Positions 2,238 through 45,791 of a DNA stretch of 64,000 nucleotides are shown here, piece by piece. The translations under genes were made by a program, and so were the position numbers. Below the pieces are notes generated by a model. It made no database searches. It saw nothing but the letters and a program-made list of their open reading frames with translations, and was not told where the DNA came from. The stretch's first letter is position 1; the number at the start of each line of letters is the position of its first letter. This DNA comes from Candidatus Staskawiczbacteria bacterium RIFOXYB1_FULL_38_37 (GTDB taxonomy: Bacteria > Patescibacteriota > Minisyncoccia > Minisyncoccales > Staskawiczbacteraceae), in the NCBI GenBank assembly GCA_001822075.1, contig MHPK01000004.1:7979-71978 (forward strand), written 5' to 3'.

Positions 2238-2329
2238 TTTGCTGCTGAATTTGCTGCTGAGCTTGCTCAGCAGCAAAAAAAAGCAGAGCAAATCATTTGT
2301 TCTGCAAAAGCCCGCTGGGCCTATATTTT

Positions 2330-2875
2330 TTAAAAGGACTCTAAGTTGCCAGAATTTATGTCCGAAAGAAAACAGACAAGGTAAAATGCGCCGCCAGAAA
2401 CAAAGAGCAATGTTGCAATTCCCGGATTCGGCAAAAGCCATACGCAAAACACGGAAGCTGAAGCTGTTATGCCAGAATATGGCAAGCGCAAAATTCCATT
2501 CCAGCTCAATTTTCCCGCGCAAGGATAGCGCGTATTTGGCTTATGCTCTTTGGCAAGACCAATCATAGCAAAGTCTGCCATAAAAAATATTGATAAAACA
2601 CAAAAAACCGACCAGTGCCGAAGTTCAAAACGATAAACAGCAACGTGCAGGAAAGCCGCCCATATCAAAGAAACTCCGACTGGGTCTCCCCATGAAAAAG
2701 TCCAAAAATCCTTCATGTAGAGGAATTTTTGATTTGTGTTCGGGATAATGGAATTCTGTTCCGGCAGGGTTTTATCAAAAAACTCTGCCAAAAACATAAG
2801 CATTATCCAAAATAAATTTCCAGCCACAGCAATAGTATAAAACGTCCAGGAAAATTTCATTTTATGCCCTTTCAA
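2330..2875 (-). CDS. Hypothetical polytopic membrane protein
   Basis: 181-aa ORF with several hydrophobic helices and no recognisable motif. Overlapping ORFs in other frames are shorter and low-complexity. Confidence 0.45.
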   Translation of the reverse strand: MKGHKMKFSWTFYTIAVAGNLFWIMLMFLAEFFDKTLPEQNSIIPNTNQKFLYMKDFWTFSWGDPVGVSLIWAAFLHVAVYRFELRHWSVFCVLSIFFMADFAMIGLAKEHKPNTRYPCAGKLSWNGILRLPYSGITASASVFCVWLLPNPGIATLLFVSGGAFYLVCFLSDINSGNLESF

Positions 2876-3018
2876 AAAATGTTGTCAAAGAGCTTCAAAA
2901 TATAAATTACAATATCACAATAAAAATATAGCGTCAACATTTACCCATCGCTAACTTTTGATTATAATAAAGTATTCGCATTTTCGCGTTATTAGCATAA
3001 AATTTGTAGATTTGTATT

Positions 3019-5103
3019 ATGCCGTACGAACCAAAAAAAGTTGAAAATAAAATTTATCAGTTCTGGGAAGAGTCTGGCTTTTTTAATCCCGATAAACTGC
3101 CCGCCCGTCATAAAAAGCCATACACTATTGTTATTCCCCCGCCGAATGTTACGGGCGAACTTCATATCGGACACGCTCTAAACGCAACAATACAGGATAT
3201 TTTGATAAGGCAGAAAAGAATGCAGGGGTTTAAAACTTTATGGCTGCCGGGAACAGACCATGCTGGAATTGCAACCCAAAATGTTGTTGAAAAAAAATTG
3301 AGGAAAGAGGGAAAAACAAGGTTTGACTTGGGCCGTGAAAAATTTATTGAAGAAGTATGGAAATGGAAAGAAGAATACGGAAATAAAATTTTAAACCAAT
3401 TTAAAAAACTTGGCTCTTCGTGTGACTGGTCAAGAACAAGGTTTACAATGGACCAGGGGTATTCTGACGCAATCAAAGAAGCTTTTTTGCATTATCATAA
3501 AAAAGGCTGGATTTATAAAGGAAAAAGAATTGTTAACTGGTGCAAAAGGTGCGCCACATCGCTTTCTGATTTAGAGCTTGAATATAAAGAAGAAAAAGGA
3601 AATTTGTGGTTTATAAAATACCCTGTTAAAGACCCGCCCGCCGGCGAGGCAGGAGGCGGATTTATCACGGTGGCAACAACAAGGCCAGAAACAATGCTGG
3701 GCGACACAGCTGTTGCTGTAAACCCAAAAGATAAAAGATATAAAAATTTAATTGGCAAAACAGCTGTCCTGCCTTTGGTAAACAGGGAAATTCCAATAAT
3801 ATCTGACATTTTAATTGATTCTAAATTCGGCACAGGGGCTGTAAAAGTAACGCCAGCCCACGACATAACCGACCAAGCAATCGGAGAAAAGCATAAATTA
3901 GAGGCAATACAAGTTATTGATGAAAAAGGAAGAATAATAAACAGTCCTGAAAAACCTGCCCGCAGCGGCTTCGCCACAGGCGATGCAGGCGGGTATAACG
4001 GATTGAAAATAGACGAAGCGAGAGAAAAAATTATTGAATATTTAAAATGCCAAAATCTTTTAGAAAAAACAGAAAATTACACCCGCCAAGTGCCAAAATG
4101 CTACAGGTGTTCAACAACAGTAGAGCTTATTCCCTCTATGCAATGGTTTTTAAAAATGTCAGAGCTGGCAAAATTAGCTGAAAAGCCTGTAAAAGCTGGA
4201 AAAATAAAATTTCACCCTAAAAATTTTGAAAAGCCATATTTTGATTGGCTAAAAAACATAAAAGATTGGTGCATTTCAAGGCAAATTTGGTGGGGCCATA
4301 AAATTCCAATAGAAGGAGAAACCGATGTTTTAGACACATGGTTTTCTGCGGCCTTGTGGCCTTTTGCAACTTTGGGCTGGCCCGAAAAAACAAAAGATTT
4401 AAAAAATTATTATCCCACTGCTGTTTTGAGCACAGCCAGAGATATTATAAATTTATGGGTTGCCAGAATGATTTTTTCCGGAATGGAATTTATGAAAGAA
4501 ATCCCCTTCAGCCATGTTTATGTGCACGCCACCGTTTTAACCCGCGACGGCCAAAGAATGTCAAAAAGCTTAGGGACAGGAATTGACCCTGTAAAATTAA
4601 TTGAGGAGTTCGGAGCTGACGCTGTAAGATTTGGGATTGCCTTCCAAATTATGGGAAACCAGGACATAAAATTTGTCACAGACAATATTTTAATGGGCAA
4701 AAAATTCTGCAATAAAATATGGAATGCTTCAAAATTTGTTGAATTAAAAAACGGAAAAGAAAAATATGACGGTAAAAAGCCTTATGCTAAAAATAAAGCT
4801 GATAAAGCAATTTTAAAATCATTGGAAAAAACAGAAAAATCAGTTAGCAAGTGCTTGGAAAATTTTGAATTCGGAAAATCAGCCCATATTTTGTATGATT
4901 TTTTCTGGCATGATTTTTGCGACAAATACATAGAAGAATCAAAAAAACAGGAATCTGAAAACACAAACAAAATTTTAATGTACGTTTTGTTGGGCTCTAT
5001 AAAGCTTTTGCACCCGTTTATGCCCTTTATAACAGAAAAAATTTACCAGCAATTGCCCCTGAAAAATAAAAAAGAGTGTATAATGATAGAAGAATGGCTT
5101 TAA
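3019..5103 (+). CDS. valS: Valine--tRNA ligase (short form lacking C-terminal coiled coil)
   Basis: PPPNVTGELHIGHALN (HIGH), KMSKSLGTG (KMSKS), VATTRPETMLGDTAVAVNPKDKRY. Confidence 0.9.
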   Translation: MPYEPKKVENKIYQFWEESGFFNPDKLPARHKKPYTIVIPPPNVTGELHIGHALNATIQDILIRQKRMQGFKTLWLPGTDHAGIATQNVVEKKLRKEGKTRFDLGREKFIEEVWKWKEEYGNKILNQFKKLGSSCDWSRTRFTMDQGYSDAIKEAFLHYHKKGWIYKGKRIVNWCKRCATSLSDLELEYKEEKGNLWFIKYPVKDPPAGEAGGGFITVATTRPETMLGDTAVAVNPKDKRYKNLIGKTAVLPLVNREIPIISDILIDSKFGTGAVKVTPAHDITDQAIGEKHKLEAIQVIDEKGRIINSPEKPARSGFATGDAGGYNGLKIDEAREKIIEYLKCQNLLEKTENYTRQVPKCYRCSTTVELIPSMQWFLKMSELAKLAEKPVKAGKIKFHPKNFEKPYFDWLKNIKDWCISRQIWWGHKIPIEGETDVLDTWFSAALWPFATLGWPEKTKDLKNYYPTAVLSTARDIINLWVARMIFSGMEFMKEIPFSHVYVHATVLTRDGQRMSKSLGTGIDPVKLIEEFGADAVRFGIAFQIMGNQDIKFVTDNILMGKKFCNKIWNASKFVELKNGKEKYDGKKPYAKNKADKAILKSLEKTEKSVSKCLENFEFGKSAHILYDFFWHDFCDKYIEESKKQESENTNKILMYVLLGSIKLLHPFMPFITEKIYQQLPLKNKKECIMIEEWL

Positions 5104-5917: not shown

Positions 5918-6343
5918 ATGGTAAACAAACCAAGAACTAAGAGTGCGGCTGCGCAAACATTGGAAATTGAAGAAGAAAAAGAAGCGCCATCTGAACCTGC
6001 AATTTTTGACCAAGAGGGAGAGCTGGTGATTGATGTTTTTGAAACAGACGTTGATTTTGTTGTTTTAGCTGCCATAGCTGGCATTCAAATTAAAGACATA
6101 GACATATCTTTAGAAAAAGATATGATGGTTATAAAAGGCAGCAGGCCAGACCCCCATGAAAATTCTAACAAAAAATACTTTTACCAGGAGTGCTATTGGG
6201 GCCCGTTTTCAAGAAAAATAGTTTTGCCTGAAAACATTGATATTGATAAAGCTGACGCTCAAATGGACAAAGGGGTTTTAAGCATTAAAATTCCAAAAAT
6301 AGAGAACAACGGAAGAAACAAACTGGGAGTAAAAATATCGTAA
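5918..6343 (+). CDS. Hsp20/alpha-crystallin small heat-shock protein
   Basis: Alpha-crystallin domain pattern: VIDVFETDVDFVVLAAIAGIQIKDIDISLEKDMMVIKGSR...GVLSIKIPK. Confidence 0.8.
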   Translation: MVNKPRTKSAAAQTLEIEEEKEAPSEPAIFDQEGELVIDVFETDVDFVVLAAIAGIQIKDIDISLEKDMMVIKGSRPDPHENSNKKYFYQECYWGPFSRKIVLPENIDIDKADAQMDKGVLSIKIPKIENNGRNKLGVKIS

Positions 6344-6363
6344 AATAACAGCAAAAACATAAA

Positions 6364-6390
6364 AAGCTCTTCATTGTGAAGAGTTTTTTA
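6364..6390 (+). terminator. Rho-independent terminator after hsp20
   Basis: Stem CTCTTC/GAAGAG with loop ATTGT, followed by TTTTTT. Confidence 0.6.
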
Positions 6391-6398
6391 TGTTTTTG

Positions 6399-6480
6399 TG
6401 CGGACGGTGGGAGTCGAACCCACAAGCCTTACGGCATACGGTCCTAAGCCGTACACGTTTGCCAGTTTCGTCACGTCCGC
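6399..6480 (-). tRNA. tRNA-Leu (anticodon UAG), long variable arm
   Basis: Reverse complement: acceptor GCGGACG/CGTCCGC, anticodon stem TACGG/CCGTA with loop CTTAGGA, T-arm GTGGGTTCGACTCCCAC. Confidence 0.85.
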
Positions 6481-7097
6481 AAATATTTTTTTGCAAATAA
6501 AAATTTACGACTAAGTGAGGATGGGAAATTTTTATAATAAATTCTATTCAATAAATTTATTGAATCGGCCATCGCGTATTCAAGAATATAACAACGTGTA
6601 GCAGTTTTTAAATATCCTTTTACTTTAAATGGCTCATTCATTCTCTTTATCCAGATAAGAAAATTTTTGCTTGCGGAACAAATTCTTATTCTAAGTTGAG
6701 GGTTTTTACTTTCTGGATGTTTGAACGCTCTAATATTGCCATCTCCATCGATACATCCTCTTAAAAAATCGAGAAAATAATCCTTTGGTATTTTTAATAC
6801 TCCTATTGTTTTTGACTTATGGGGCGTTAAACCAATGTCTAATAAAAATTTATAAAAAGCGACATCGCCAAATTGAATACGAAAATATTTCTTTTCTTTT
6901 TCCCCGCCTCTCGCTTTCTTTGAAATTTTATTTTGTAAGTTTAGATAATTTTTAAAAATTTCAACTAAATCCAGATCTTTAGAGGTAAATTCCATATGAT
7001 GCCCGTCAATAGAAAGATTACCATCGGTTGCCATTAATCCGATTACATAAGCAAACTTTGAAGACCACAAAATTTTTACTTTATTAAGGGGTCGCAT
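6471..7097 (-). CDS. LAGLIDADG homing endonuclease, double-motif, free-standing
   Basis: Two motifs, YVIGLMATDGNL and FLRGCIDGDGNI. The last 10 nt including the stop overlap the 5' end of tRNA-Leu(UAG). Confidence 0.8.
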   Translation of the reverse strand: MRPLNKVKILWSSKFAYVIGLMATDGNLSIDGHHMEFTSKDLDLVEIFKNYLNLQNKISKKARGGEKEKKYFRIQFGDVAFYKFLLDIGLTPHKSKTIGVLKIPKDYFLDFLRGCIDGDGNIRAFKHPESKNPQLRIRICSASKNFLIWIKRMNEPFKVKGYLKTATRCYILEYAMADSINLLNRIYYKNFPSSLSRKFLFAKKYLRT

Positions 7098-7233
7098 AAA
7101 ACGCTTTATCTAAAATCTTTTTTGTTTCGCCATACCCGCATTCAATTCCTTGCTGCCGGCAGACAGGCGCCACAAGAGCAATTTTTATAATTTATTATAT
7201 ATTTATCGTAAAATATAATTAGTTCACTCGCTC

Positions 7234-7261
7234 GAAAAAAGGAAAATTGTTTCCTTTTTTC
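7234..7261. terminator. Perfect 12-bp palindromic hairpin (bidirectional terminator candidate)
   Basis: GAAAAAAGGAAA-attg-TTTCCTTTTTTC, located downstream of the minus-strand pilin-like array. Confidence 0.5.
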
Positions 7262-8873: not shown

Positions 8874-8937
8874 TATCCCATTATATCAAATAAATTGAAA
8901 AACAAGGTGTGGATAACTGCCAGTCCCTTTCGGGACT

Positions 8938-9047
8938 GAAATTTTCAATTTTAAATTATAAATTTTAAATGAAATTATAATGTTTAAATGTTTTAAAATT
9001 TAAGAATTTAGTTTTGAATTAAAATTTAAAATTTGTTATTTAAAATT
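8938..9047 (+). repeat. AT-rich intergenic repeat, long copy, ending in a conserved 27-mer
   Basis: gaaattttcaattttaaat...ttaaatgttttaaa...aaaatttaaaatttgttatttaaaatt. Related to 45691..45791, and its 27-mer recurs at 12241. Confidence 0.7.
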
Positions 9048-11574
9048 AGTCGCGCAGGCATGCCCCCGAGGCAACATGGTCTTTGTCTTCAAGGCGCATT
9101 ATTCTCACTCCCTGCGTTGCCCTGCCCAGCAAAGAAATAGATTTTACTCCTGTTCTTATAACCTGGCCTTTTCTTGAAATTACAATTAAATCTTCTTCTT
9201 CCAACGGCTCATGCAAAATACATGCCATCATTATGCCTCCTGTTTTTGCTGTTATTTTGGCAGTTTTAACTCCAGACCCTCCTCTGCCCTGCACTTTATA
9301 CTGGCTTATATCTGTCCTCTTGCCATATCCGTTTTCCATTACAACCAAAAGATATCTTCTTGCGGACTTTTTTCCTGCCTGTCCTGCAGGCAGAGTTTTT
9401 GGGTCTTCAAAAACATCTTTGCTTATAACATCCATGCCCACCACTTCATCTTCTTTTTTTAAATTAATGCCCTTGACTCCAGCTGCCGTTCTCCCCATGG
9501 GCCGTATATCTTTTTCTTTAAATCTTATCGCAGCCCCGTTTTTAGTGGTTAAAATAATGTCGTCTTCGCCTGTTGTTTTAACAACTTTTTCTAAAGCATC
9601 TCCTTTTTCAAGCTTTATTGCAATAATTCCGCTTTTTCTTACATTTTTAAATTCGTCTAAAGCTGTTTTCTTTATTCTGCCCTTTTTTGTAACCATAACA
9701 AGATATTTAAATTTTCCTTCCTCTTCTTTTTTAACCGGCACTAAAGACAAAACTTTTTCTTCTGTAGACAAATCCAAAAAGTTTAAAATGCCTCTTCCTC
9801 TGGCAACCCTTGTTCCCTCTGGAATTTCATAAACCTGCGTTTGCAGAACCTTGCCAGAATCTGTAAAAAACATCAAATTATCATGTGTTGAGGCGCACAA
9901 AAAATGCTCAACAATATCGTCTCCCATTGTTTTCATTCCCATTATTCCTTTTCCTCCCCTCTTTTGAATTTTGTAGGTGGCAGGATTTATTCTTTTGATA
10001 TATCCGCCGGTTGTAAGGGTGACAATTGTTTCTTCCAAAGGGACCAAATCAACTTCGGTTATTTCTCCTAGTTTGCCTTTTACAACTTTTGTTTTTCTTT
10101 GGTCTCCAAACTTTTCTTTCAGCTCCTGAAATTCTTTTTTAATAATCTCTTTTAATTTTTCGGGGCTCTTTAAAATTGCCATCAGCTCCTTTATTCTTTC
10201 TAAAATTTCTTTCAGCTCGTCTTCAATCTTTTTTCTTTCAAGGCCGGCTAGAGTCTGCAGCCTCATTTCTAAAATGGCCACTGCCTGTTTTTCAGAAAGC
10301 TTAAATTTTTTTATTAAATTCGTTTTTGCCTCTTCTTTGTCGGCTGACTTTTTGATTGTCTTTATGACCTCATCAATATTTTTTAAGGCAATCATTAACC
10401 CTTCTAAAATATGCGCCCTGTCCTTTGCTTTTTCAAGTTCAAATTTTGTTCTGCGGGTTACAACTTCTTCTCTGTGTCCAATAAAATATTTTAGCACTTC
10501 AGCCAAAGACAAAATTTCAGGCTGTATGCCGTCAACCAAAGCCAGCAAATTCAAATGGAATGTTTTTTGCAGATTCGTGAACTTGTAAAGCCTGTTTAAT
10601 ATCCTGTTTGGCTGGAACCCTCTTTTAATATCAATAATAATTCTCATGCCTTCCCTGTCTGACAAATCTCTGATGTCTTTTATGCCTTCAATTTTCTTTT
10701 CAGAAACCAATTTTGCCATTTCTTCAACTAAGCTTGATTTTAAAACTTGATATGGAATTTCTGTAATAACAATTCTTTGCTGGCCGTCTTTTTTCTCCAC
10801 AATATCTGCTTTCCCGCGTATTAAAATAGAACCCTTGCCCTGTGAATAAGCTGTTATTATCTCTTTTCTATCATAAATTATGCCTCCTGTTGGAAAATCA
10901 GGGCCCTGCACAAATTCAAACAAATCTTCTGTTTCGGCCTTTGGATGCAAAAGCATATAAATTAAAGCATCCATTACTTCAGTAAGGTTGTGCGGAGGAA
11001 TATTTGTTGCCATTCCAACAGCAATTCCTAAACTCCCATTCAAAAGGAGCTGAGGCGCGGGCGACGGGAGAACTGTGGGCTCTTTTGTCATGCCGTCATA
11101 ATTGTCTACGAAATTTACAGTGTCTTTATCAATATCTTGGAGCATTAACTCGCCGATTTTAGACATTCGGCATTCAGTATAACGGGCCGCTGCAGCCCCA
11201 TCGCCGTCGATTGAACCAAAATTGCCCTGGCCGTCCACCAAAGTATACCTCATGTTAAAATCTTGCGCCATGCGCACCAAGCTGTCATACACAGCTGTAT
11301 CTCCGTGCGGATGGTAAGATTTCAAAACTTCACCAACAACAGACATTGACTTTCTGTGTTTTGAAGAAGCCCTTAAACCTGTTTCTCCCATTGCATATAA
11401 AATTCTGCGGTGCACAGGCTTTAAGCCGTCTCTTACGTCGGGAAGCGCGCGGGACACAATAACCGACATTGCATAATCAATGTATGATTCTTTCAATTCA
11501 GTCACCAACTCCCTTTGAACAATTTTTCCTCCGCCAGCTGGCGAATTCTTTTGTTTTGATTTTTCCTCCGCCAT
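9046..11574 (-). CDS. gyrA: DNA gyrase subunit A
   Basis: [46 protein letters not shown]-terminal beta-pinwheel repeats. Confidence 0.95.
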
Positions 11575-12240: not shown

Positions 12241-12267
12241 AAAATTTAAAATTTGTTATTTAAAATT
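12241..12267 (+). repeat. 27-mer aaaatttaaaatttgttatttaaaatt (short copy)
   Basis: Identical to 9021..9047 and 45765..45791. Confidence 0.8.
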
Positions 12268-22647: not shown

Positions 22648-22701
22648 ATGGATATAAAAATAATCTACGAAGATAATGATGTTTTGGTTGCTTTTAATTG
22701 A
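22648..22701 (+). pseudogene. Duplicated 5' fragment of the rluD-like gene (17 codons then stop)
   Basis: 22648..22690 matches 23191..23233 at 40 of 43 positions. It translates MDIKIIYEDNDVLVAFN*, against MNVKIIYEDNDVLVVDKP in the full gene. Confidence 0.8.
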
Positions 22702-22747
22702 GGAATATGATATTCTTAAATCGTGATAAAACATAAAAACAAAAAAT

Positions 22748-22981
22748 ATGTTTAATGAATTTATTGAAAAAAAATTAAAATCGGCGCGATATAAAATTCT
22801 CAAAGACGGGAGTTATTTTGGCAAAATTCCAGAGGTGCAGGGAGTATGGGCCAACGCTAAAAACTTGGAAGATTGTCGGCAAGAATTGAGAGAAGTTTTA
22901 GAAGACTGGTTTCTTCTAAAACTTCAAGCGAGAGAAAAAATACCTGATTTCGAAATTAGAATTGGATGCCGTCATGCTTAA
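22748..22981 (+). CDS. hicB: HicB-like antitoxin (UPF0150 type)
   Basis: YKILKDGSYFGKIPEVQGVWANAKNLEDCRQELREVLEDW pattern. Overlaps the next ORF by ATGCTTAA. Confidence 0.65.
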   Translation: MFNEFIEKKLKSARYKILKDGSYFGKIPEVQGVWANAKNLEDCRQELREVLEDWFLLKLQAREKIPDFEIRIGCRHA

Positions 22982-23186
22982 AAATATTTCTTGGCGAAAA
23001 TTCATTCAGAAATTTAAACGGCTCGGATTTGATGGCCCCTATTCAGGCGGCCGTCATTTGTTTATGATTAAAAAAGAATTAAAAGTTCATATTCCCAATC
23101 CTCATCGTAGCGACATTTCAAAACACCTTGTTTCAGAAATTTTAAAACAAGCAGGCATTTCAATTAGCGATTGGGAAAACGCTTGA
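22974..23186 (+). CDS. hicA: HicA-like mRNA interferase toxin
   Basis: FKRLGFDGPYSGGRHLFM...HIPNPHRSDISKHLVSEILKQAGI. The in-frame ATG at 22974 was chosen over 22962. Confidence 0.65.
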   Translation: MLKNISWRKFIQKFKRLGFDGPYSGGRHLFMIKKELKVHIPNPHRSDISKHLVSEILKQAGISISDWENA

Positions 23187-23190
23187 TTAA

Positions 23191-23937
23191 ATGAATGTAA
23201 AAATAATCTACGAAGACAATGATGTTTTGGTTGTTGATAAACCTGCTGGAATTGTTGTTTTTCCAGAAGGAGATATAAGTGGAGAAAAAACCTTAATTGA
23301 TTATCTGGTAGAAAAAAATCCTGAGTTAAAATTAGCCGGTGAAACACCAAGATACGGAATTGCGCATAGATTAGACAAAGACACTTCCGGAATTTTGTTA
23401 GTGGCAAAAAACAGCGAGGCCTTGATTTTTTTTCAAAAACAGTTTTCCGCCGTCGCTAAAGCTTTGGCGGACAAGAAAAATAGCCAAACACTTGAAAAAA
23501 GCATAGAAAAAAGGTATATTGCATTAGTTGAGGGCGATATAAAAGAAGATAATAGGACAATCCACACTCTAATTGGACGCTCGCCAAAAGACCCAAGAAA
23601 ACAAAAAGCATATTCTTTAAACGAAGCAAAAACCGGCAGAAGAGAAGCAGTCTCAGAATATAAAGTTTTACAGCGCTTTAAAGACTATACTCTGCTTGAG
23701 GTTCAAATAAAAACAGGAAGGCGACACCAGATAAGGTGCCATTTATCTTATTTGCATCACCCGATTGCAGGCGACAAACTATATGGATTTAAAAACTCAA
23801 AAACTCCTGAAGGCCTGACAAGGCAATTTCTGCACGCATCATACCTAAAAATCCAATTACCCAATGGAAAAACCGAAGAATTTAAATCGGATTTGCCAGA
23901 GGGATTACAAGTAATACTTAAAAACCTAAAAACATAA
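23191..23937 (+). CDS. rluD: RluA/RluD-family pseudouridine synthase
   Basis: HRLDKDTSGILLVAKN and TGRRHQIRCHL motifs. Confidence 0.85.
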   Translation: MNVKIIYEDNDVLVVDKPAGIVVFPEGDISGEKTLIDYLVEKNPELKLAGETPRYGIAHRLDKDTSGILLVAKNSEALIFFQKQFSAVAKALADKKNSQTLEKSIEKRYIALVEGDIKEDNRTIHTLIGRSPKDPRKQKAYSLNEAKTGRREAVSEYKVLQRFKDYTLLEVQIKTGRRHQIRCHLSYLHHPIAGDKLYGFKNSKTPEGLTRQFLHASYLKIQLPNGKTEEFKSDLPEGLQVILKNLKT

Positions 23938-26418: not shown

Positions 26419-27195
26419 TTAATATGAATTCCTTAACAATTCAGCTATCTCTAAATTAATTTTTTGTGGAGCCATTTGAAAATACTCACTAAAAATATCA
26501 AATTTACGCTTTAAATACAAGCCATCAGAGCAATTTTTATACATAAATCCGAATATTTTTACACTATCTCCCGTTGAATACCTTAATTGAAACGCTCTAC
26601 TACTATTATAAATTTTGTCGTGATTAATTAATAACTTATTTTTCAATACCTCCGCCAATCCTTGAAGAAAAGCACTGCTGCCAGAAGTAAAAATTGCTGA
26701 TAATTTTTTGATAATTATGGGCTTAGTAATTCCTTTTGCTTTTTGAAAAAAAGCACAACCATCACCGTCAAAATAACCTCTTATAAAATGGTTTAAACAA
26801 TCGTCTGGAATATTTTTTGGAAATTTGATTATTAAAGACTTTCTTGGAGTTAGACCAAGTTTGATTAAATCTTCAAATAATTTTTTGCTACCAATTCTGA
26901 TACGATAAGATTCTGCACTTTCGTAAACTTTACCATTTTGGAACAAAGCTTTTCGACGAGGACGATACTGGATAGGATGACTAGACCCAATAACCTTTTT
27001 AATGGATTCTAAAATATCCCTGTCTTTACTCGGAAAAGTTATATACTGGGTTCTTGATGATTTTTTTACATCTTCAATGTCTCCATCAGCATATAAAAAG
27101 CCTAAAACATAAGCCATTTCTGGTGACCATTTTTCAAAAAAATCTACTTTAAATTTATAGCGATTGTGTCCTCCACGAGGGTCTAATGAAAACAT
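26419..27195 (-). CDS. LAGLIDADG homing endonuclease, double-motif, free-standing
   Basis: YVLGFLYADGDI and FIRGYFDGDGCA. The stop codon ends 1 nt before the tRNA-Cys 5' end. Confidence 0.8.
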   Translation of the reverse strand: MFSLDPRGGHNRYKFKVDFFEKWSPEMAYVLGFLYADGDIEDVKKSSRTQYITFPSKDRDILESIKKVIGSSHPIQYRPRRKALFQNGKVYESAESYRIRIGSKKLFEDLIKLGLTPRKSLIIKFPKNIPDDCLNHFIRGYFDGDGCAFFQKAKGITKPIIIKKLSAIFTSGSSAFLQGLAEVLKNKLLINHDKIYNSSRAFQLRYSTGDSVKIFGFMYKNCSDGLYLKRKFDIFSEYFQMAPQKINLEIAELLRNSY

Positions 27196-37834: not shown

Positions 37835-37842
37835 AAATAACT

Positions 37843-37915
37843 AAATTCGAAATTCGAATTTCGAAATTCGAAACTTTAAATTTGTTTCGGATTTCGGATT
37901 TCGCGCTTCGGATTT
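37843..37915. repeat. ttcgaaattcgaa dyad repeats plus tttcggat x3, upstream of rny
   Basis: aaattcgaaattcgaatttcgaaattcgaaac...tttcggatttcggatttcgcgcttcggatttt. The same ttcgaaattcgaa unit occurs inside tsaD. Confidence 0.6.
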
Positions 37916-38587: not shown

Positions 38588-39892
38588 TTATTCAGAAAAA
38601 CTTTCCAATTTTTGGAATACTTTTTCATTATATAACACGCCTTTAGTATACTCTTTTAATTGCTCAATGTCAAACTCATTTTTTGTTGATTTTGATACTT
38701 CTTCTTCAACTTCTGCATCTGAAACTTCAATATTTTCTCTTTTGCCAAGCTCTCTTAAAACTAAAAAACCTTTAAGCCGTTTTTCGGCTTCTTTTTGAAA
38801 AGTTTGGGTTAATGCTTCTTCTGTTTGTTTTACAGCCGACAAATACTGCTCAAAAGTAATTTTCATATTCTGGGTAACTTTATTTTTTAAATCTTCCATT
38901 AGTCTTTGTTTTTCGTAATCTACCATTGATTCTGGCAACTCAACTTTTACTTTTCCTGAAATTTTTTCTAAAATTTCTCCTCTTTTTCTTTGTTTTTCCT
39001 GTTCTGTTTTTTCTATTATAATGCCTTCTTTCATGCTTTGTTTTAAAGTAACTAATGTGTCAAAATTACCCATGCCTTTTGCAAACTCATCATTAATTTC
39101 AGGCAATTCCATTTTTTGAACTGATTTTAATTTCACTTTAAAAATTTTACCCGCCTGATTGCCCGAAGGGCTTTCGGCGGGCGACTTCTTTTCCCCGCCC
39201 AAAGCTTCGGCATTATGGCGGGCAGGCTGCCAATCCATTTCAAATATTTTTTCTTCACCAGCTTTCATTCCAACAATTGCATCTTCAAAGCCTCTTATAA
39301 ATCCGCCCTCTCCTAAAACAAAGTGGTCGCGCACAGATTTACCGGCATTTATATCTCTATTTTCATAATTTATTTCAACAAAGTCGCCTTTTTCAGCCGG
39401 CTCATTTTTTAAAGTCATTTTTGCCCTGCTTTTTTGCAGATATTTTAAGGAATCTTGCACTTCTTCTTCTGTAACAGAGATTTCTTTTCCCGCCGACTGG
39501 CGGATAATTTTTTTTGCGATTTCTTTGTAATTTTCTGGTAATTCAACGTCCGGTAGAACAGTAATCACGGCTGTAAAAATAAACGGATTTCCTTTTGCAA
39601 TTTTTACAATCTTAACTTCCGGCTGGCCTATTGGCTCTAAATTATTATCTTTTACATAATCAGAATAAACATGCCTTACAGCATGGTCGCCAGCTTCCAT
39701 TAACAAACTTTCCGGCTTTATTTTTTCTTCAACCAATTTATTCGGCGCCTGCCCGGGCCTGAACCCGTCAACTTTTACATGGCTTTTCATATGCGACAAA
39801 GCATGCTCAAAATGGCGCTCAAATTCTTCCGAAGTTAATTCGAATGTTATTTCTATCTGTGACTTTTCTAATTTTTTAGATTTTATATCCAT
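38588..39892 (-). CDS. tig: Trigger factor, with ~26-aa GC-rich element insertion in the PPIase region
   Basis: MDIKSKKLEKSQIEITFELTSEEF..., FKBP-type core GFEDAIVGMKAGEEK. Inserted segment PARHNAEALGGEKKSPAESPSGNQAG. Confidence 0.85.
   Translation of the reverse strand: MDIKSKKLEKSQIEITFELTSEEFERHFEHALSHMKSHVKVDGFRPGQAPNKLVEEKIKPESLLMEAGDHAVRHVYSDYVKDNNLEPIGQPEVKIVKIAKGNPFIFTAVITVLPDVELPENYKEIAKKIIRQSAGKEISVTEEEVQDSLKYLQKSRAKMTLKNEPAEKGDFVEINYENRDINAGKSVRDHFVLGEGGFIRGFEDAIVGMKAGEEKIFEMDWQPARHNAEALGGEKKSPAESPSGNQAGKIFKVKLKSVQKMELPEINDEFAKGMGNFDTLVTLKQSMKEGIIIEKTEQEKQRKRGEILEKISGKVKVELPESMVDYEKQRLMEDLKNKVTQNMKITFEQYLSAVKQTEEALTQTFQKEAEKRLKGFLVLRELGKRENIEVSDAEVEEEVSKSTKNEFDIEQLKEYTKGVLYNEKVFQKLESFSE
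39194..39226 (-). repeat. 33-nt GC-rich palindromic element (copy B, in-frame in tig)
   Basis: The minus strand reads cctgcccgccataatgccgaagctttgggcggg, which is 29 of 33 identical to copy A in the same reading frame. Confidence 0.8.
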
Positions 39893-39963
39893 AAAGCTAA
39901 CGCGTTTAATATTAAAAAAGACGCGATTTTAAATTTGCGCCTTCCCAGAAAAGATAAAAACCT

Positions 39964-40248
39964 TTATGTCAGATCTACTCCTAATTTTTGTTTTATAACA
40001 TCTTTAACTCTGTTGATATCGGCTCGCATCATCGCGAACTCATCTTCTATATCTGTCATTCTTTTTAAAAAATTATCAAGTGTTGTAGTAAGTTTATCAA
40101 ATTTTTCACTAAATTTTAAATCCAAAGCTTTGATTTTTTCCTCTAACGAGCTCATTTTTTCATCAACGGCAGTTAAGATAACTGTCGTCTGCTCGCTCAA
40201 AAGCTCTTGAATGTCTTTTTTTGTAATTTGTTGCGTTTCTTCTGCCAT
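39964..40248 (-). CDS. Small coiled-coil protein (paralog-like to 40736..40987)
   Basis: 94 aa, heptad-rich, C-terminus IKQKLGVDLT resembling IAEKLGIKLEY of the neighbour. Confidence 0.5.
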   Translation of the reverse strand: MAEETQQITKKDIQELLSEQTTVILTAVDEKMSSLEEKIKALDLKFSEKFDKLTTTLDNFLKRMTDIEDEFAMMRADINRVKDVIKQKLGVDLT

Positions 40249-40265: not shown

Positions 40266-40440
40266 TTTTATCTTATCAGCTTAAAATCCATTGTCAATTA
40301 TACGCATTAAATCACCTATAAATAACTCATCGACAACTGTCGGTGAGTTATTCGAGCTTTAATCGCTCAGACGCATCTGAGCGATTGGATTTAGAGCCGA
40401 AAAAGGTACCTGACCCCTTTATCTTTGACCCCTTTATCTT
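40266..40440 (-). repeat. ~170-bp intergenic module R1 copy 1 (two hairpins + promoter)
   Basis: Near-identical to 41171..41340 (about ten substitutions). Hairpins aataactcatcgaca/tgtcggtgagttatt and aatcgctcaga/tctgagcgatt. On the minus strand: TTGACA-16-TAAGAT. Confidence 0.8.
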
Positions 40441-40478
40441 ACACTATTAAAATTTTTTTCATAGATTTTATTTTTTAA

Positions 40479-40574
40479 TTTTAATAATAATTACCTAATT
40501 ATACCACAACTTTTAACGGCTCACCCTCAAACAGGTTGAGCCGTTGGATTAAAAAGAATGGTGGCTGACCCCAT
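40479..40574 (-). repeat. Intergenic module R3 copy 1 (hairpin + extended -10)
   Basis: tttaataataattacctaattataccacaa...acggctca..gttgagccgttggatt, matching 41807..41910. The minus strand reads TGGTATAAT. Confidence 0.75.
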
Positions 40575-40664
40575 TTACACAATGTAATGCTCAAATTCTT
40601 CCGAAGTCAGTTCAAAAGTTAATTCTATCTGTGACTTTTCTATTTTCTTTTGTGTAGCTTTCAT
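40575..40664 (-). pseudogene. Duplicated 5' fragment of tig (29 codons then stop)
   Basis: Translates MKATQKKIEKSQIELTFELTSEEFEHYIV*, against tig MDIKSKKLEKSQIEITFELTSEEFERHF. DNA 40589..40733 aligns to 39817..39958 including the upstream region. Confidence 0.8.
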
Positions 40665-40735
40665 AATATATATTTATTTTAATATTAAAAAAAGACGCGA
40701 TTTAAAATTTGCGCCTTCCCAGAAAAGACAAAAAA

Positions 40736-40987
40736 TTAATATTCTAATTTTATCCCAAGCTTTTCAGCGATCTGTAAAAGCCACTTATCGTGCCGATTAA
40801 CTTTTTCAGATAGCATGGTCATTTCCTGAAAATAAGTGTCAGCTTTTGTTGCATAAGCGTCAACCGATGCCTGAAGATTGCTGAAATCTTTTCTATATTC
40901 ATCTCTAAAGTTTTCAAAATCAAGCTTTGTGATAAAAACTTCTTCCTGCGCCTTTATTAATTTTTGTATATCTTCGTTATCCAACAT
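40736..40987 (-). CDS. Small coiled-coil protein
   Basis: 83 aa. Its ATG lies 2 nt after the stop of the upstream zinc-ribbon ORF. Confidence 0.5.
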   Translation of the reverse strand: MLDNEDIQKLIKAQEEVFITKLDFENFRDEYRKDFSNLQASVDAYATKADTYFQEMTMLSEKVNRHDKWLLQIAEKLGIKLEY

Positions 40988-40989
40988 AT

Positions 40990-41166
40990 TTAATTTGTTT
41001 CAACTTTATTTTTTTCTGGTTTTATAAATTTATGCTTCTTCAAAAAATTTATAATTGGCAAACCACATTTGTCGCACAATTCGGCTTTTGACCAATATCC
41101 AAATCCAGCCGTTATCGGCTTCTCTTTAATTTCTTTTTTACACAGATCGCACTTTACAATGTTCAT
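40990..41166 (-). CDS. 58-aa zinc-ribbon protein (CxxC...CxxC), not in ORF track
   Basis: Hand translation: MNIVKCDLCKKEIKEKPITAGFGYWSKAELCDKCGLPIINFLKKHKFIKPEKNKVETN*. Translationally coupled to 40736..40987. Confidence 0.5.
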   Translation of the reverse strand: MNIVKCDLCKKEIKEKPITAGFGYWSKAELCDKCGLPIINFLKKHKFIKPEKNKVETN

Positions 41167-41170
41167 ATGC

Positions 41171-41340
41171 TTTTATCTTACCAGCTTAAAACCCATTGTC
41201 AATTATACGCATTAAATCATCTATAAATAACTCATCGACAACTGTCGGTGAGTTATTCGAGCTTTAATCGCTCAGACGCGTCTGAACGATTGGATTTAGA
41301 GCTGAAAAAGGTACCCGCCCCTTTTATCTTCTTTTATCTT
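41171..41340 (-). repeat. Intergenic module R1 copy 2
   Basis: See 40266..40440. Confidence 0.8.
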
Positions 41341-41347
41341 TTATGCA

Positions 41348-41797
41348 TCAACTAAAAAATAAAGCTTTGAAAATAAGAAAAAATAAAACAACGACAACAG
41401 CTATTGTGGTATAAATCCATATTCTTTTTTGGGCTGGTTGATTTTCGTGACGATCTGAGAACGAACCGATTAGATATCCTATAAAAAAATAAATTAAAAG
41501 ATTTATAATAACTACACCAATAAAACTAGACCAATTATCACAACCCATAAAACTTGATGGATGACAATATTCTTCTGCAAAAGAACTTCCAAAAACAGCA
41601 AAAAAATATGGGGAAAGAAGAACGCCAATAATACTTATTAATAATGAGATTAATACAAGTATAGCTGGTGCCGTGGGTATTAAATCTATTTTGAGAGATT
41701 GCAACCCAAGACTTACGGGTATTATATAAAAAGCAACGATAGCTATAACTAAATAAATAGACGCCGTAATTAATCCGAACTTTAAGGATTTTTTCAT
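41348..41797 (-). CDS. Hypothetical four-TM membrane protein
   Basis: 149-aa hydrophobic ORF lying between R3 copy 2 and R1 copy 2. Confidence 0.5.
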   Translation of the reverse strand: MKKSLKFGLITASIYLVIAIVAFYIIPVSLGLQSLKIDLIPTAPAILVLISLLISIIGVLLSPYFFAVFGSSFAEEYCHPSSFMGCDNWSSFIGVVIINLLIYFFIGYLIGSFSDRHENQPAQKRIWIYTTIAVVVVLFFLIFKALFFS

Positions 41798-41806
41798 AAA
41801 ATTACA

Positions 41807-41910
41807 TTTTTAATAATAATTACCTAATTATACCACAATTTTAACGGCTCAACCTGTTTTAAGTTGAGCCGTTGGATTTAGAGCTGAAAAAGGCTCCTGC
41901 CCCCATTTAA
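41807..41910 (-). repeat. Intergenic module R3 copy 2
   Basis: See 40479..40574. Confidence 0.75.
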
Positions 41911-41938
41911 CATTTAACACATTTAACACAAAGGAGGG

Positions 41939-42265
41939 TTATTTTTCGTATCTTTTGTCTATTTTTTCCATTTTTTTCTCCAAAGCTTTTTCAATATCAA
42001 CATTCATAGCATTTGCAAGCAACAAACTTGTAATAATAACATCGGCAAATTCTTCTGCTAAATTGCCTTCTACAATATTATCTAATTTATCTTTTCTTTG
42101 CATAGAATTATATGCTAAAACTTCATCACATAGCTCACCAAACTCTTCTGCCAGCTTCACCGTTCTGGCAAGTATACGTTTTTCTTCGTCAGGATAATTT
42201 CCATATCTGTTTCTCAACCTTTCATCTTCCTTTTTTATAAAACTTATTAAATCTTTAAACTCCAT
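41939..42265 (-). CDS. MazG-like nucleotide pyrophosphohydrolase
   Basis: LAEEFGELCDEVL and EEFADVIITSLLLANAMNVDIEKAL (EExxE/D pairs). Confidence 0.7.
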   Translation of the reverse strand: MEFKDLISFIKKEDERLRNRYGNYPDEEKRILARTVKLAEEFGELCDEVLAYNSMQRKDKLDNIVEGNLAEEFADVIITSLLLANAMNVDIEKALEKKMEKIDKRYEK

Positions 42266-42341: not shown

Positions 42342-44360
42342 TTAAACTAGAAATGGAATAATTAGTAATGCAACTATATTGAGAACTTTAATCATTGGGT
42401 TTATTGCTGGTCCCGCTGTGTCTTTATATGGGTCGCCCACTGTGTCGCCGGTAACGGCTGCTTGATGGGCAAAACTTCCTTTGCCTCCGTAAGCTCCGCC
42501 CTCAATGTATTTTTTGGCATTGTCCCAGGCGGCTCCGCCGGTTGTCATTGAAATTCCAACAAACAATCCTGTAACTATGCTTCCAATTAATAATCCGCCC
42601 AAAGCTTCAACTCCCAAAAATACTCCAACTAAAATTGGCGCTAAAATAGGAATTAAAGCCGGCAACAACATTTCTTTAATGGCTGACTTTGTAACAATAT
42701 CAACGCATTTTCCGTATTCTGGTTTTCCTGTTCCTTCCATTAAGCCCGGAATTTGTTTAAACTGCCTTCTTACTTCTTCTACAACTTTTCCTGCTGTTTT
42801 TCCGACAGCTCCCATTAAAAACGATGCAAACAAATAGGGGAGCAGTCCGCCAATTAAAAGCCCTGCAATAACTTTTGAATTATCTAAAGAAAAACTTACA
42901 GCTCCGTTTATGCTTGCTTCCTGCGAATAAGCTGCAAACAAAACTAAGGCCGCTAGGCCAGCCGAAGCAATTGCATATCCTTTTGTTACAGCTTTTGTTG
43001 TGTTTCCAACTGCGTCCAATGCATCTGTAATTTTTCTTACTTCTTCTGGCATTCCTGACATTTCTGCAATTCCGCCGGCGTTGTCTGTTATGGGCCCGTA
43101 TGCGTCAACTCCCACAACAATTCCAGAAACCGAAAGCATTGCCATTACAGCTAACGCCACTCCGTAAATTCCGGCAAACCAAAAACTTATAATAGTTCCA
43201 AAAGCAATTAATAAAACAGGCATGGCTGTTGACTGCATTCCCAGCCCCAAGCCCCTAATTATATTTGTTGCGTGCCCTGTTTCTGACGCTTTAGCAATTG
43301 ATTTTACCGGGCCGTAACTTTTTGAAGTGTAATATTCTGTGATAACAAACATTCCTCCGGCAATTGCCAAACCAACCAAGCATGCAAAGTACAAATTATT
43401 TGTTGCAATTGCCTGGCCTGCCATTAATTTTAAAATTACAGGATAAAATCCGATTGCTGACAAAATTACAGAAGCCGCAATTCCTTTGTACATAGCCCCC
43501 ATAATTGACTGCGTTTCTTGCCCGCCTAAATTTTTTCTAAAAATTTTGGTGGGTGAACCCAATTTTACAAAATAACTGCCCACAATTGAGGTTAAAATTG
43601 AAACAGCTCCCAAAACTAAAGGAAGTAAAACAAATTGGGGCGAGGCTGGAAATAACAAACCTCCCAAAATCATTGTGGCTACTGTTGTTACGGCGTAAGT
43701 TTCAAAAATGTCAGCTGCCATTCCTGCGCAATCTCCAACGTTGTCGCCAACCTGGTCAGCTATTACAGCCGGGTTTCTTGGGTCGTCTTCGGGAATTCCC
43801 TTTTCAACTTTTCCAACCAAGTCAGCTCCCACGTCAGCTGCTTTTGTGTAAATGCCACCGCCAACTCTTGCAAAAACCGAAATTAACGAAGCCCCAAATC
43901 CCAAAGCCACCAATCCTTCCATTCCGGTTAAAAGGTAATAAACCGAAACAGCCAAAAGCCCCAAGCTCACAACCATTAAGCCTGTAATTAATCCTCCTTT
44001 AAAAGAAATGTCTAAAGCTTTTACCATTCCTTTTTTTGCTGACTCGGCAACTCTTGTGTTTGCCTGTGTTGAAACAATCATTCCAATAAATCCCGAAACT
44101 CCCGACAATACGGCTCCCAATAAAAATCCTATTGCAATTTTCCAGCCCAAAAAGAAAAGTAAAATAAATAAAACAACTCCAACTATGGAAATTGTTTTAT
44201 ACTGCCTTTTCAAATACGACATAGCTCCTTCCTGAACAGCCAAAGTAATTTCAACTGCCTTGCCTCCCGCAACCGGGGCTTTTCTAATTTGCATTACCAA
44301 AAACCAAACATAGGCAATTGCAAACAGCGAAATAATTATCGGATAATATATTAACTGCAT
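42342..44360 (-). CDS. hppA: Membrane-bound ion-translocating pyrophosphatase
   Basis: [54 protein letters not shown]. Confidence 0.95.
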
Positions 44361-45690: not shown

Positions 45691-45791
45691 TTTTAAATTT
45701 TCAATTTTAAATGAATGCTTAAATTTTTAAATGTTTTAAACATTTTGGCATTTGAATTTGATTTAAAATTTAAAATTTGTTATTTAAAATT
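45691..45791 (+). repeat. AT-rich intergenic repeat, long copy
   Basis: Shares attttcaattttaaat, ttaaatgttttaaa, tttgaatt and the terminal 27-mer with 8938..9047. Confidence 0.7.

Follow-up and report, generated by a model that had tools for sequence, protein, structure and literature searches.

Intergenic modules that recur between different small genes raise the question of whether those genes belong to a cassette-exchange system. Two such modules, R1 and R3, are found twice each between hppA and tig in a 64,000-nucleotide stretch of contig MHPK01000004.1 (the window) from Candidatus Staskawiczbacteria, a groundwater bacterium of the Parcubacteria (candidate phyla radiation [CPR] or Patescibacteria) with a tiny genome of roughly 1 Mb. 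As the window also carries dnaA-dnaN, gyrA, and many tRNA genes, the locus lies in the core chromosome, beside the replication origin. Our analysis somewhat favors a reading in which R1 and R3 carry repeats like the repetitive extragenic palindromic (REP) sequences that go with REP-associated tyrosine transposases (RAYTs), which would mark a recombination-prone islet, together with a tandem duplication or insertion that took in part of tig. On balance, we consider the locus to reflect a known kind of repeat-driven genome shuffling rather than a new cassette-exchange system.

Every gene around the locus is on the minus strand. In the order of transcription, hppA (42342-44360) is followed by the features below and then by the intact tig (38588-39892), clpP, and rny.

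41939-42265, minus strand: MazG-like pyrophosphohydrolase gene, the upstream neighbor (Pfam MazG, 34 bits, above the cut-off).
41808-41930, minus strand: R3 copy 2 (type b), in front of mem149, with short tandem repeats (41904-41930), tail (~41885-41908), palindrome (41843-41873), and extended −10 element TGGTATAAT (41828-41836).
41348-41797, minus strand: mem149, a 149-amino-acid (aa) predicted membrane protein (from the list of open reading frames [ORFs]; no significant family match).
41171-41344, minus strand: R1 copy 2 (from repeat alignment and promoter and hairpin scans), with tandem repeats (41321-41344), tail (~41302-41325), palindrome A (41266-41291), palindrome B (41226-41257), TGCGTATAAT (41202-41211), and promoter TTGACA-16-TAAGAT (41202-41175).
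40990-41166, minus strand: ZnR58, a 58-aa CxxC...CxxC zinc-ribbon ORF (from the ORF list).
40736-40987, minus strand: CC83, an 83-aa single-helix coiled-coil-type protein (258 homologues), the ancestral upstream neighbor of tig.
40578-40735, minus strand: terminator and tig promoter of unit B (40671-40735) with a truncated tig 5′ end (82% identical to 39817-39960).
40479-40577, minus strand: R3 copy 1 (type a; from repeat alignment), with a tail (~40553-40575) that abuts the stop of the tig remnant, palindrome (40515-40545), and TGGTATAAT (40498-40506).
40441-40464, minus strand: 7-codon ORF (MKKILIV and a stop), what is left of the start of a gene that followed the R3 promoter; codons 1 to 3 are as in mem149.
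40266-40440, minus strand: R1 copy 1 (from repeat alignment and promoter and hairpin scans), with two 15-nucleotide (nt) tandem repeats (40411-40440), tail (~40397-40420), palindrome A (40361-40386), palindrome B (40321-40352), TGCGTATAAT (40297-40306), and promoter TTGACA-16-TAAGAT (40297-40270).
39964-40248, minus strand: CC94, a 94-aa helical protein of a second coiled-coil family (84 homologues).
39806-39963, minus strand: terminator and tig promoter of unit A with the 5′ end of the intact tig (from self-comparison).

In the self-comparison, the two R1 copies (40266-40425 and 41171-41330) were 94.4% identical over 160 nt, with 9 substitutions, and the two R3 copies (40479-40577 and 41808-41909), both with a hairpin and TGGTATAAT, were 80.6% identical over 103 nt; each hairpin has its counterpart in the other copy. 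These values agree with the initial annotation, which had counted about ten substitutions in R1 and had placed the promoters, hairpins, and ORFs exactly or within a few bases. It had overlooked a perfect extended −10 element of R1, TGCGTATAAT, which abuts TTGACA, and a third repeat pair (39817-39960 and 40589-40734; 81.9% over 149 nt) in which the CC-gene terminator is followed by the tig promoter and ~29 codons from the start of tig. The upstream member of this pair ends in a tig remnant ORF at 40581-40670 (translated as MKATQKKIEKSQIELTFELTSEEFEHYIV and a stop) with a weak Trigger_N match. R3, R1, and the spacer with the tig 5′ end each occur in two copies in the same order, and since all three repeats are colinear, the locus amounts to a single tandem structure of two units: on the gene strand, R3b-mem149-R1-ZnR-CC83-spacer-tig remnant (unit B) precedes R3a-gene remnant-R1-CC94-spacer-tig (unit A), and the four modules are its noncoding parts. 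The description as a cassette-like locus held insofar as boundaries are conserved and cargo varies, but the two copies belong to one colinear structure with a truncated tig. The tig remnant meets R3a at the short-repeat edge of the R3a tail.

A slot between R3 copy 1 and R1 copy 1 had been called apparently empty. It does enclose only the 7 codons, but it retains the R3 promoter, the 5′ untranslated region (UTR), and ATG-AAA-AAA, as in mem149, and is therefore a gutted gene and not an unoccupied site. The remnant amounts to only ~25 nt of A/T-rich sequence, and its alignment is too ambiguous for the lost gene to be rebuilt.

The locus was compared with contigs of the same organism or of relatives (L001 to L037). 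L001, L002, L036, and L030 are 99.6 to 100% identical to it, and L030 stops inside R3 copy 1, as would be expected of an assembly at a repeat; the order around the MazG-like gene, whose stop codon lies 36 nt ahead of the R3 copy 2 tail, matches in L001, L002, L036, and L037. All long contigs with the exact MazG protein (24/24) and all those with exact CC94 (24/24) had the same gene order, and no mem149 presence/absence variant was seen among these 48 contig reads; the population-level test proposed earlier thus showed no variation. The CC94 protein is identical to entries from RIFOXYC1_FULL_37-type metagenome-assembled genomes and GCA_003518025.1.

In relatives, the gene content varies. L018 to L021 and L024 have the order ZnR-CC83-tig-clpP-rny, and their ZnR promoter (TTGACA-17-GATAAT) comes directly after a hemerythrin gene, with no tail and no palindromes. 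L017 carries hppA, a type-a tail, a type-B palindrome, the R1 promoter, ZnR, an unrelated 96-aa ORF, and tig; L004/L005 and L031 to L035 carry NYN, hemerythrin, the R1 promoter, CC94 or CC98, and tig. Depending on the lineage, the R1 promoter and the tig spacer enclose ZnR-CC83, ZnR-X96, or CC94. From these gene orders, ZnR-CC83-tig is evidently the ancestral arrangement, and by the same comparison TTGACA-16-TAAGAT of R1 is native to the CC genes, a promoter that they inherited vertically. R1 copy 2 from 41205 downstream is orthologous to the ZnR-CC83 promoter of L018, L019, L024, and L017.

R3-type modules stand in front of other genes in two of these relatives. L004 has a type-a module before NYN (4180-4272; 89% identical to R3 copy 1) and a type-b module before hemerythrin (5009-5102; 91.5% identical to R3 copy 2), and L031 has modules before an 88-aa ORF (1807-1885) and before hemerythrin (3261-3351), with 89 to 96% identity over the matched parts of the modules of both contigs. 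As both subtypes are present in L004 and L031, they are older than the split of these species. Conserved boundaries with variable cargo, as the initial annotation put it, are thus found across species. Recombination between modules, which it had also proposed, is directly suggested by a hybrid palindrome in the hemerythrin module of L031, with a left arm of R1 type (AATCGCTCAGA) and a right arm of R3 type (GAGCCGTT), whose mismatches fall exactly on the type-distinguishing positions, and by mosaic identity along the locus. Between the window and L004, the hairpin loop of R3a keeps its place but is inverted (reverse-orientation match, 96.8%). Along CC94-tig-clpP, sliding-window identity to L031 varies between 50% and 100%, and the tig remnant with its spacer is 91% identical to L031, 83% to L004, and about 78-82% to the resident copy. 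Taken together, these comparisons indicate that recombination occurs within and between the repeats, and we are inclined to regard the locus as a variable islet between hppA and tig, a mosaic built by recombination.

The CC genes bear on the age of the two units. CC83 and CC94 have no DNA similarity, and their BLASTP match is marginal and not significant; their family profiles align end to end (hhalign probability, 94.6%; E = 7e-8). Both families (258 and 84 matches) are widespread and well conserved in Parcubacteria, and by profile comparison they are ancient, distantly related paralogous families. CC83 is 93% identical (aa) to its L018 orthologue, while Tig there is only 64% identical, and CC94 is 98% identical (aa; 92-97% nt) to its L031 orthologue. 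The predicted structure of CC83 is one long helix (residues 4-77; predicted local distance difference test [pLDDT], 87.6), and a PDB profile search with CC83 gave nothing significant. The stop codon of ZnR58 precedes the CC83 start codon by 2 nt, in agreement with the coupling reported initially, and orthologues of ZnR58 are found in the same position in L017 (76% aa) and L024 (60% aa); ZnR-CC83 is a translationally coupled pair that many Parcubacteria conserve upstream of tig. CC83, CC94, ZnR58, and mem149 had no significant Pfam, PADLOC, or PHROG match, and PADLOC and PHROGs on the five small proteins returned weak coiled-coil noise in addition to MazG.

A simpler explanation is that R3-mem149-R1-ZnR-CC83-spacer-tig 5′ end was duplicated in place and decayed, the proximal copy losing mem149 and ZnR while its CC gene diverged, the modules being ordinary intergenic DNA and the RAYT link incidental. 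The colinear repeats, the truncated tig at the junction, the confinement of the modules to this locus within the window, and the fixed architecture in all contigs read fit this account, to which we nevertheless give a low probability. Copies that arose in this way would be closest to each other and evenly diverged. Identity is instead very uneven (94% for R1, 82% for spacer and tig remnant, 81% for R3, and no DNA similarity between the CC genes), and the tig remnant is nearer to the tig of another species than to the resident tig. As CC83 and CC94 are separate conserved families with 93-98% orthologues in other lineages, their difference is not post-duplication decay. Both R3 subtypes already stand before other genes in L004 and L031, and L004 and L031 (A type) and L018 and L024 (B type) come close to separate alleles of the A and B units. 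Duplication followed by decay, named as a refuting alternative in the initial annotation, is weakened by these results.

What, then, are the modules that the two units share? Each module is a composite of a REP-like stem-loop (the tail) with half-repeats, one or two palindromes, and a sigma-70-type promoter. The tail (motif, AAWGGGGNCAGSNRCCWTT) forms a small stem-loop, AAWGG-GGTCAGnnA-CCWTT, with a 5-bp stem and a 9-nt loop. The tail pattern of the initial annotation had only three matches in the whole 64 kb (40387, 41292, and 41874), where shuffles gave an expectation of 0; as a tail common to both modules it was correct as written for three of the four copies and, for the core GGGGnCAG..CC, for all four, R3 copy 1 having the variant GGGGTCAGCCACCATTCTTTTTAATCC. 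The alignment took in thirteen tails of the window, L004, L017, and L025 (3 tails of L031 and 1 degenerate L025 copy are outside it); in it, 89% of the stem cells were paired, with the compensated variants AATGG/CCATT, AAAGG/CCTTT, and AATAG/CTATT. The covariation score was 0.20, compared to 0.108 in shuffles (reached by 12 of 500), which is suggestive but not strong. Each tail is accompanied on the side of the upstream gene by 2 to 4 short tandem repeats (period, 7-16) of its left half, such as AAGATAAAGGGGTCA twice at 40411-40440. There are 4 tails in the window, all at this locus, and 7 in 14 kb around a RAYT-like gene on L025; all are intergenic except one, which overlaps the 3′ end of the RAYT-like gene. 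The palindromes, 1 or 2 per module, belong to one family, AAYNNCTCA(N4-18)TGAGNNRTT, with 12 copies in the DNA examined (0.07 expected per shuffled window) and three arm types, each internally compensated.

Some further observations concern the same elements. In L031 (975-1065), a distinct canonical terminator hairpin (ACACCTCATCC...GGATGGGGTGT and a T-run) comes after a degenerate type-a tail, so the tail can be paired with unrelated hairpins. A perfect 26-bp palindrome, AATAACTCAACAGCTGTTGAGTTATT, lies within the tsaD coding sequence (window 2085-2110; residues NNSTAVELF) and is identical at 25 of 26 positions to the R1-type palindrome B of L017; the tsaD segment is presumably not an insertion, its length being as in Escherichia coli TsaD. 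L004 (4330-4393) and L017 (2090-2173) have in common a promoter with a 5′-UTR hairpin, CGCCCCAGCCARCCGMAAGGTCCGCTGGGG, before different genes (NYN and tig, respectively), a further shuffled intergenic module with no Rfam match. L004 also has, between hppA and the islet (2203-4061), what by eye from the translation resembles a restriction-modification insertion, made up of a 199-aa ORF and, on the opposite strand, a 415-aa ORF that is LexA-like at the N terminus and like an MT-A70-type methyltransferase at the C terminus.

The tail also brackets a candidate enzyme. Contig L025 carries a RAYT-like gene (6184-6864; 226 aa) adjoined by a CC83 paralogue (P0312, or CC78), and as CC78 and CC94 occur in the same four NCBI assemblies, L025 is another contig of the organism of the window. 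The protein matches Pfam Y1_Tnp (61.5 bits; cut-off, 23); its sole NCBIfam match is REP_Tyr_transpos, with 73.2 bits, below the curated cut-off of 80, and its sole PDB match is E. coli TnpA-REP (4ER8; E = 1.8e-4), with which the HUH (NHFH), tyrosine (RYVERNP), and DW.FSS motifs all align. By domain score the gene is a member of the Y1 superfamily, and it likely belongs to the RAYT subfamily, its score there being subthreshold. RAYTs are typically flanked by their REP/REPIN repeats (PMC3337134). The two arms of a perfect 23-bp inverted repeat, AAAGGGGTCAGGTACCTTTGATT (6042-6064 and 6849-6871), flank the L025 gene. The first 18 nt of this repeat are the core of the R1 copy 1 tail, and outside its arms lies a second inverted pair, of type-a tails (21 bp, 90%; 5957-5977 and 8875-8895). 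The flanking of a transposase gene by an inverted repeat that characterizes REP/RAYT systems is thus present, and the REPIN organization, in which two inverted REPs enclose a short spacer, is not, the window tails being single and in the same orientation. All seven tails of the L025 locus have tandem half-repeats, and one R3-type palindrome is present. A tandem duplication of 71 nt (100% identity) at this locus comprises a tail, the 5′ UTR, and the first 7 transposase codons and, like the duplicated unit of the window, starts at a tail. The earlier supposition that an enzyme lies outside the window can be retained in the form of a RAYT-like Y1 transposase flanked by the tail, but not as a dedicated site-specific exchange enzyme, for which there was no evidence.

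In the same part of L025 (5900-9000), long arrays of short tandem repeats (e.g., GACCCCTTTGTTC four times) adjoin the RAYT-like gene. Two CC83-family paralogues (7001-7237 and ~8998-9252) are situated just outside the inverted tails, each with a promoter resembling TTGAC-17-TATAAT, and an RHS/SpvB toxin gene is located upstream.

The window has a second case of the tig anatomy. Directly after tRNA-Val comes a 50-nt piece left from the 5′ end of rluA (22648-22697; translated as MDIKIIYEDNDVLVAFN and a stop), with 88% identity to the beginning of the intact gene; it is followed by the hicB-hicA toxin-antitoxin pair (22648-23240 for the stretch as a whole) and the intact rluA-type pseudouridine synthase gene (23191-23937). 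As at tig, a cassette lies between direct repeats of the 5′ end of the target gene. L017 has a weak analogue of this anatomy at clpP.

The following history would account for these findings under the favored reading of REP/RAYT-like repeats with a tandem duplication or insertion. A segment consisting of R3a, a gene, R1, CC94, the spacer, and the tig 5′ end may have been joined in tandem to the resident R3b-mem149-R1-ZnR-CC83-spacer-tig, either through an unequal crossover in the tig 5′ homology, between haplotypes that had diverged, or by single-crossover (Campbell-type) integration of a looped-out circle via the spacer/tig 5′ homology. The outcome of either route would be a truncated tig and an extra unit with direct repeats of this homology on both sides, the other junction falling exactly at the short-repeat edge of the REP-like tail. 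Gene conversion would later have homogenized the two R1 copies (94%), and the gene behind R3a would have been gutted by a deletion. The REP-like tails and palindromes might serve mainly as dispersed homology and as fragile or cleavable breakpoints, possibly nicked by the RAYT, and may have been co-opted as spacers between the end of one gene and the promoter of the next. The cassettes would move by general recombination, with no dedicated integrase.

Among known systems, REP sequences and bacterial interspersed mosaic elements with their RAYTs (TnpA-REP) in E. coli and Pseudomonas (PMC3337134; PDB 4ER8) are alike in being short extragenic stem-loops just after stop codons, in having a Y1/HUH transposase (the L025 enzyme is nearest to RAYTs by family and structure) flanked by an inverted repeat, and in coinciding with rearrangement breakpoints. 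The window repeats differ in the conserved 9-nt loop, in the tandem half-copies and the second, longer palindrome family that accompany them, and in their host, an ultrasmall CPR genome. Promoter-bearing or similar intergenic repeats such as the Correia repeat-enclosed elements of Neisseria, BOX, RUP, and ERIC resemble R1 and R3 as intergenic modules of ~100-170 bp with hairpins and promoter elements that are linked to sequence shuffling. Unlike these, R1 and R3 themselves lack both terminal inverted repeats and target duplications, and the R1 promoter descends with the gene that follows it rather than arriving with an element. Campbell-type insertion or segmental duplication is matched by the flanks of the extra unit, where the tig 5′ end and spacer are directly repeated, by the truncated tig at the junction, and by the recurrence of this anatomy at rluA with hicBA. 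The window copies differ from the products of such an event in their unequal divergence and nonorthologous cargo, which call for one or more additional exchanges or conversions.

Several points weigh against the favored reading. The order of events fits either tandem duplication followed by replacement or Campbell-type insertion. The tail stem is only 5-6 bp long and A/T rich, its covariation support is modest, and the NCBIfam score of the RAYT-like protein falls short of the cut-off. The four window tails lie at one locus and share an orientation; all are single, none forming a REPIN-type doublet, and the repeat is not demonstrably high-copy or dispersed in the DNA examined. The exact 22-nt tail was absent from 185,579 GTDB species representatives except for one match in an ABC-type coding region, which is due to chance; in scans of viral contigs, the R3 hairpin had 0 matches and the tail 3, which we take to be the chance level for a 16-mer in a collection of that size. 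The putative link of the RAYT to rearrangement comes from breakpoints that coincide with tails at two loci. Finally, the modules are conserved at ~90% between species, like hppA, which could mean selection for a regulatory function.

The last point leads to an explanation that we likewise regard as unlikely, in which the palindromes and tail are regulator sites or a structured leader or 3′ end that coregulate the small coiled-coil genes and their neighbors, the look of a border arising because selection keeps the modules while the genes around them turn over. It is consistent with the ~90% identity of modules between species whose tig DNA is ~79-81% identical, with palindrome arms that remain complementary through three compensated variants, with a tail upstream of all CC-family genes seen in the organism (4/4), with palindromes immediately upstream of −10 elements, and with hairpin folding z-scores of −2.2 to −7.0. 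The antisense strand folds somewhat better, however, the hairpin loop is inverted between species, arms recombine, and R3 precedes functionally unrelated genes. An operator would not be expected to bracket a transposase gene as a perfect inverted repeat, with one copy reaching into the 3′ end of the gene, as the tail does. Rfam gave tRNAs only for the window at the gathering threshold and a single noise match for the locus at E ≤ 1, and L004, L017, and L025 likewise gave tRNAs only. Intrinsic terminators have a G+C-rich stem and then a T-run on the transcribed strand; the scan for them called no R1 or R3 hairpin, and the sequence 3′ of the hairpins on the gene strand is A rich with no T-run. 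Two other candidates were discarded: an RNA switch between the tail and a hairpin arm, as the pairing is not kept between R1 and R3, and plus-strand 35-aa ORFs in R1 (40343-40450 and 41248-41355), which are noncoding, the frame being broken in the type-a tail (TTG GAT TAA).

Integron cassettes are mostly promoterless and expressed from a common promoter, with an IntI-type tyrosine recombinase beside the array, and attC sites are 57-141 nt long with R″-L″...L′-R′ boxes, extrahelical bases, and the consensus RYYYAAC/GTTRRRY. That R1 and R3 are attC-like sites of a dedicated recombinase, with the 7-codon slot as an empty site, is very improbable: hairpin-forming repeats do bracket small, same-strand ORFs of unrelated function, cargo varies between species, and the R3 stem GCTCAAC...GTTGAGC fits the consensus, but no recombinase (tyrosine or serine), integrase, or transposase domain was found in the 40 largest window ORFs (Pfam, E ≤ 1e-5; RuvB and RuvC present, 12 ORFs with no Pfam match) or the five locus ORFs, the hairpins are 26-32-nt near-perfect palindromes with the heptamers at the inner stem end and no bipartite R/L boxes or bulges, each gene has its own consensus-like promoter, the boundaries do not match the crossover point, the 7-codon slot keeps its start codon and 5′ UTR, the duplicated unit takes in part of tig, and presence/absence polymorphism was lacking in the 48 contig reads, and no evidence was found for the dedicated site-specific exchange that had been considered.

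Some observations elsewhere in the window are recorded here. Free-standing ORFs with LAGLIDADG_3 homing-endonuclease-like domains (~38 bits each) lie beside tRNA genes at 6471-7097 and 26419-27195, both on the minus strand. An identical 27-nt A/T-rich motif, AAAATTTAAAATTTGTTATTTAAAATT, is present at 9021-9047, 12241-12267, and 45765-45791, in three intergenic regions upstream of minus-strand genes, nusA included. Tandem repeats of the TTCGAAAT type occur between rny and clpP (37839-37888), and strings like aaattcgaaattcgaaa inside tsaD, around 1728-1800, resemble them.

More speculatively, and with a good deal of doubt, REP-like repeats tied to a single RAYT might be portable gene-end/promoter junctions and preferred breakpoints in ultrasmall CPR genomes and, together with short direct repeats of target 5′ ends (tig, rluA, and the RAYT gene), might provide an integrase-free route by which small genes loop out, pass between lineages, and reenter upstream of core genes; the genes so moved, which we propose just as hesitantly, might include those for coiled-coil proteins, toxin-antitoxin pairs, and membrane proteins.

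If the favored reading of REP/RAYT-like repeats at a recombination-prone islet is correct, REP/RAYT-type repeats, of which a limited literature search found no description in Patescibacteria, would be present and active in this group. The repeats are sites at which assemblies break, as in L030, and the tig and rluA remnants are prone to being miscalled as genes. The ZnR-CC83 pair upstream of tig is a widespread, uncharacterized small-protein module that may merit a study of its own. A streamlined, symbiont-type genome of roughly 1 Mb would still shuffle small accessory genes beside the essential genes hppA, tig, and clpP, and it would do so by general recombination at dispersed REP-like repeats rather than by classical mobile-element machinery.

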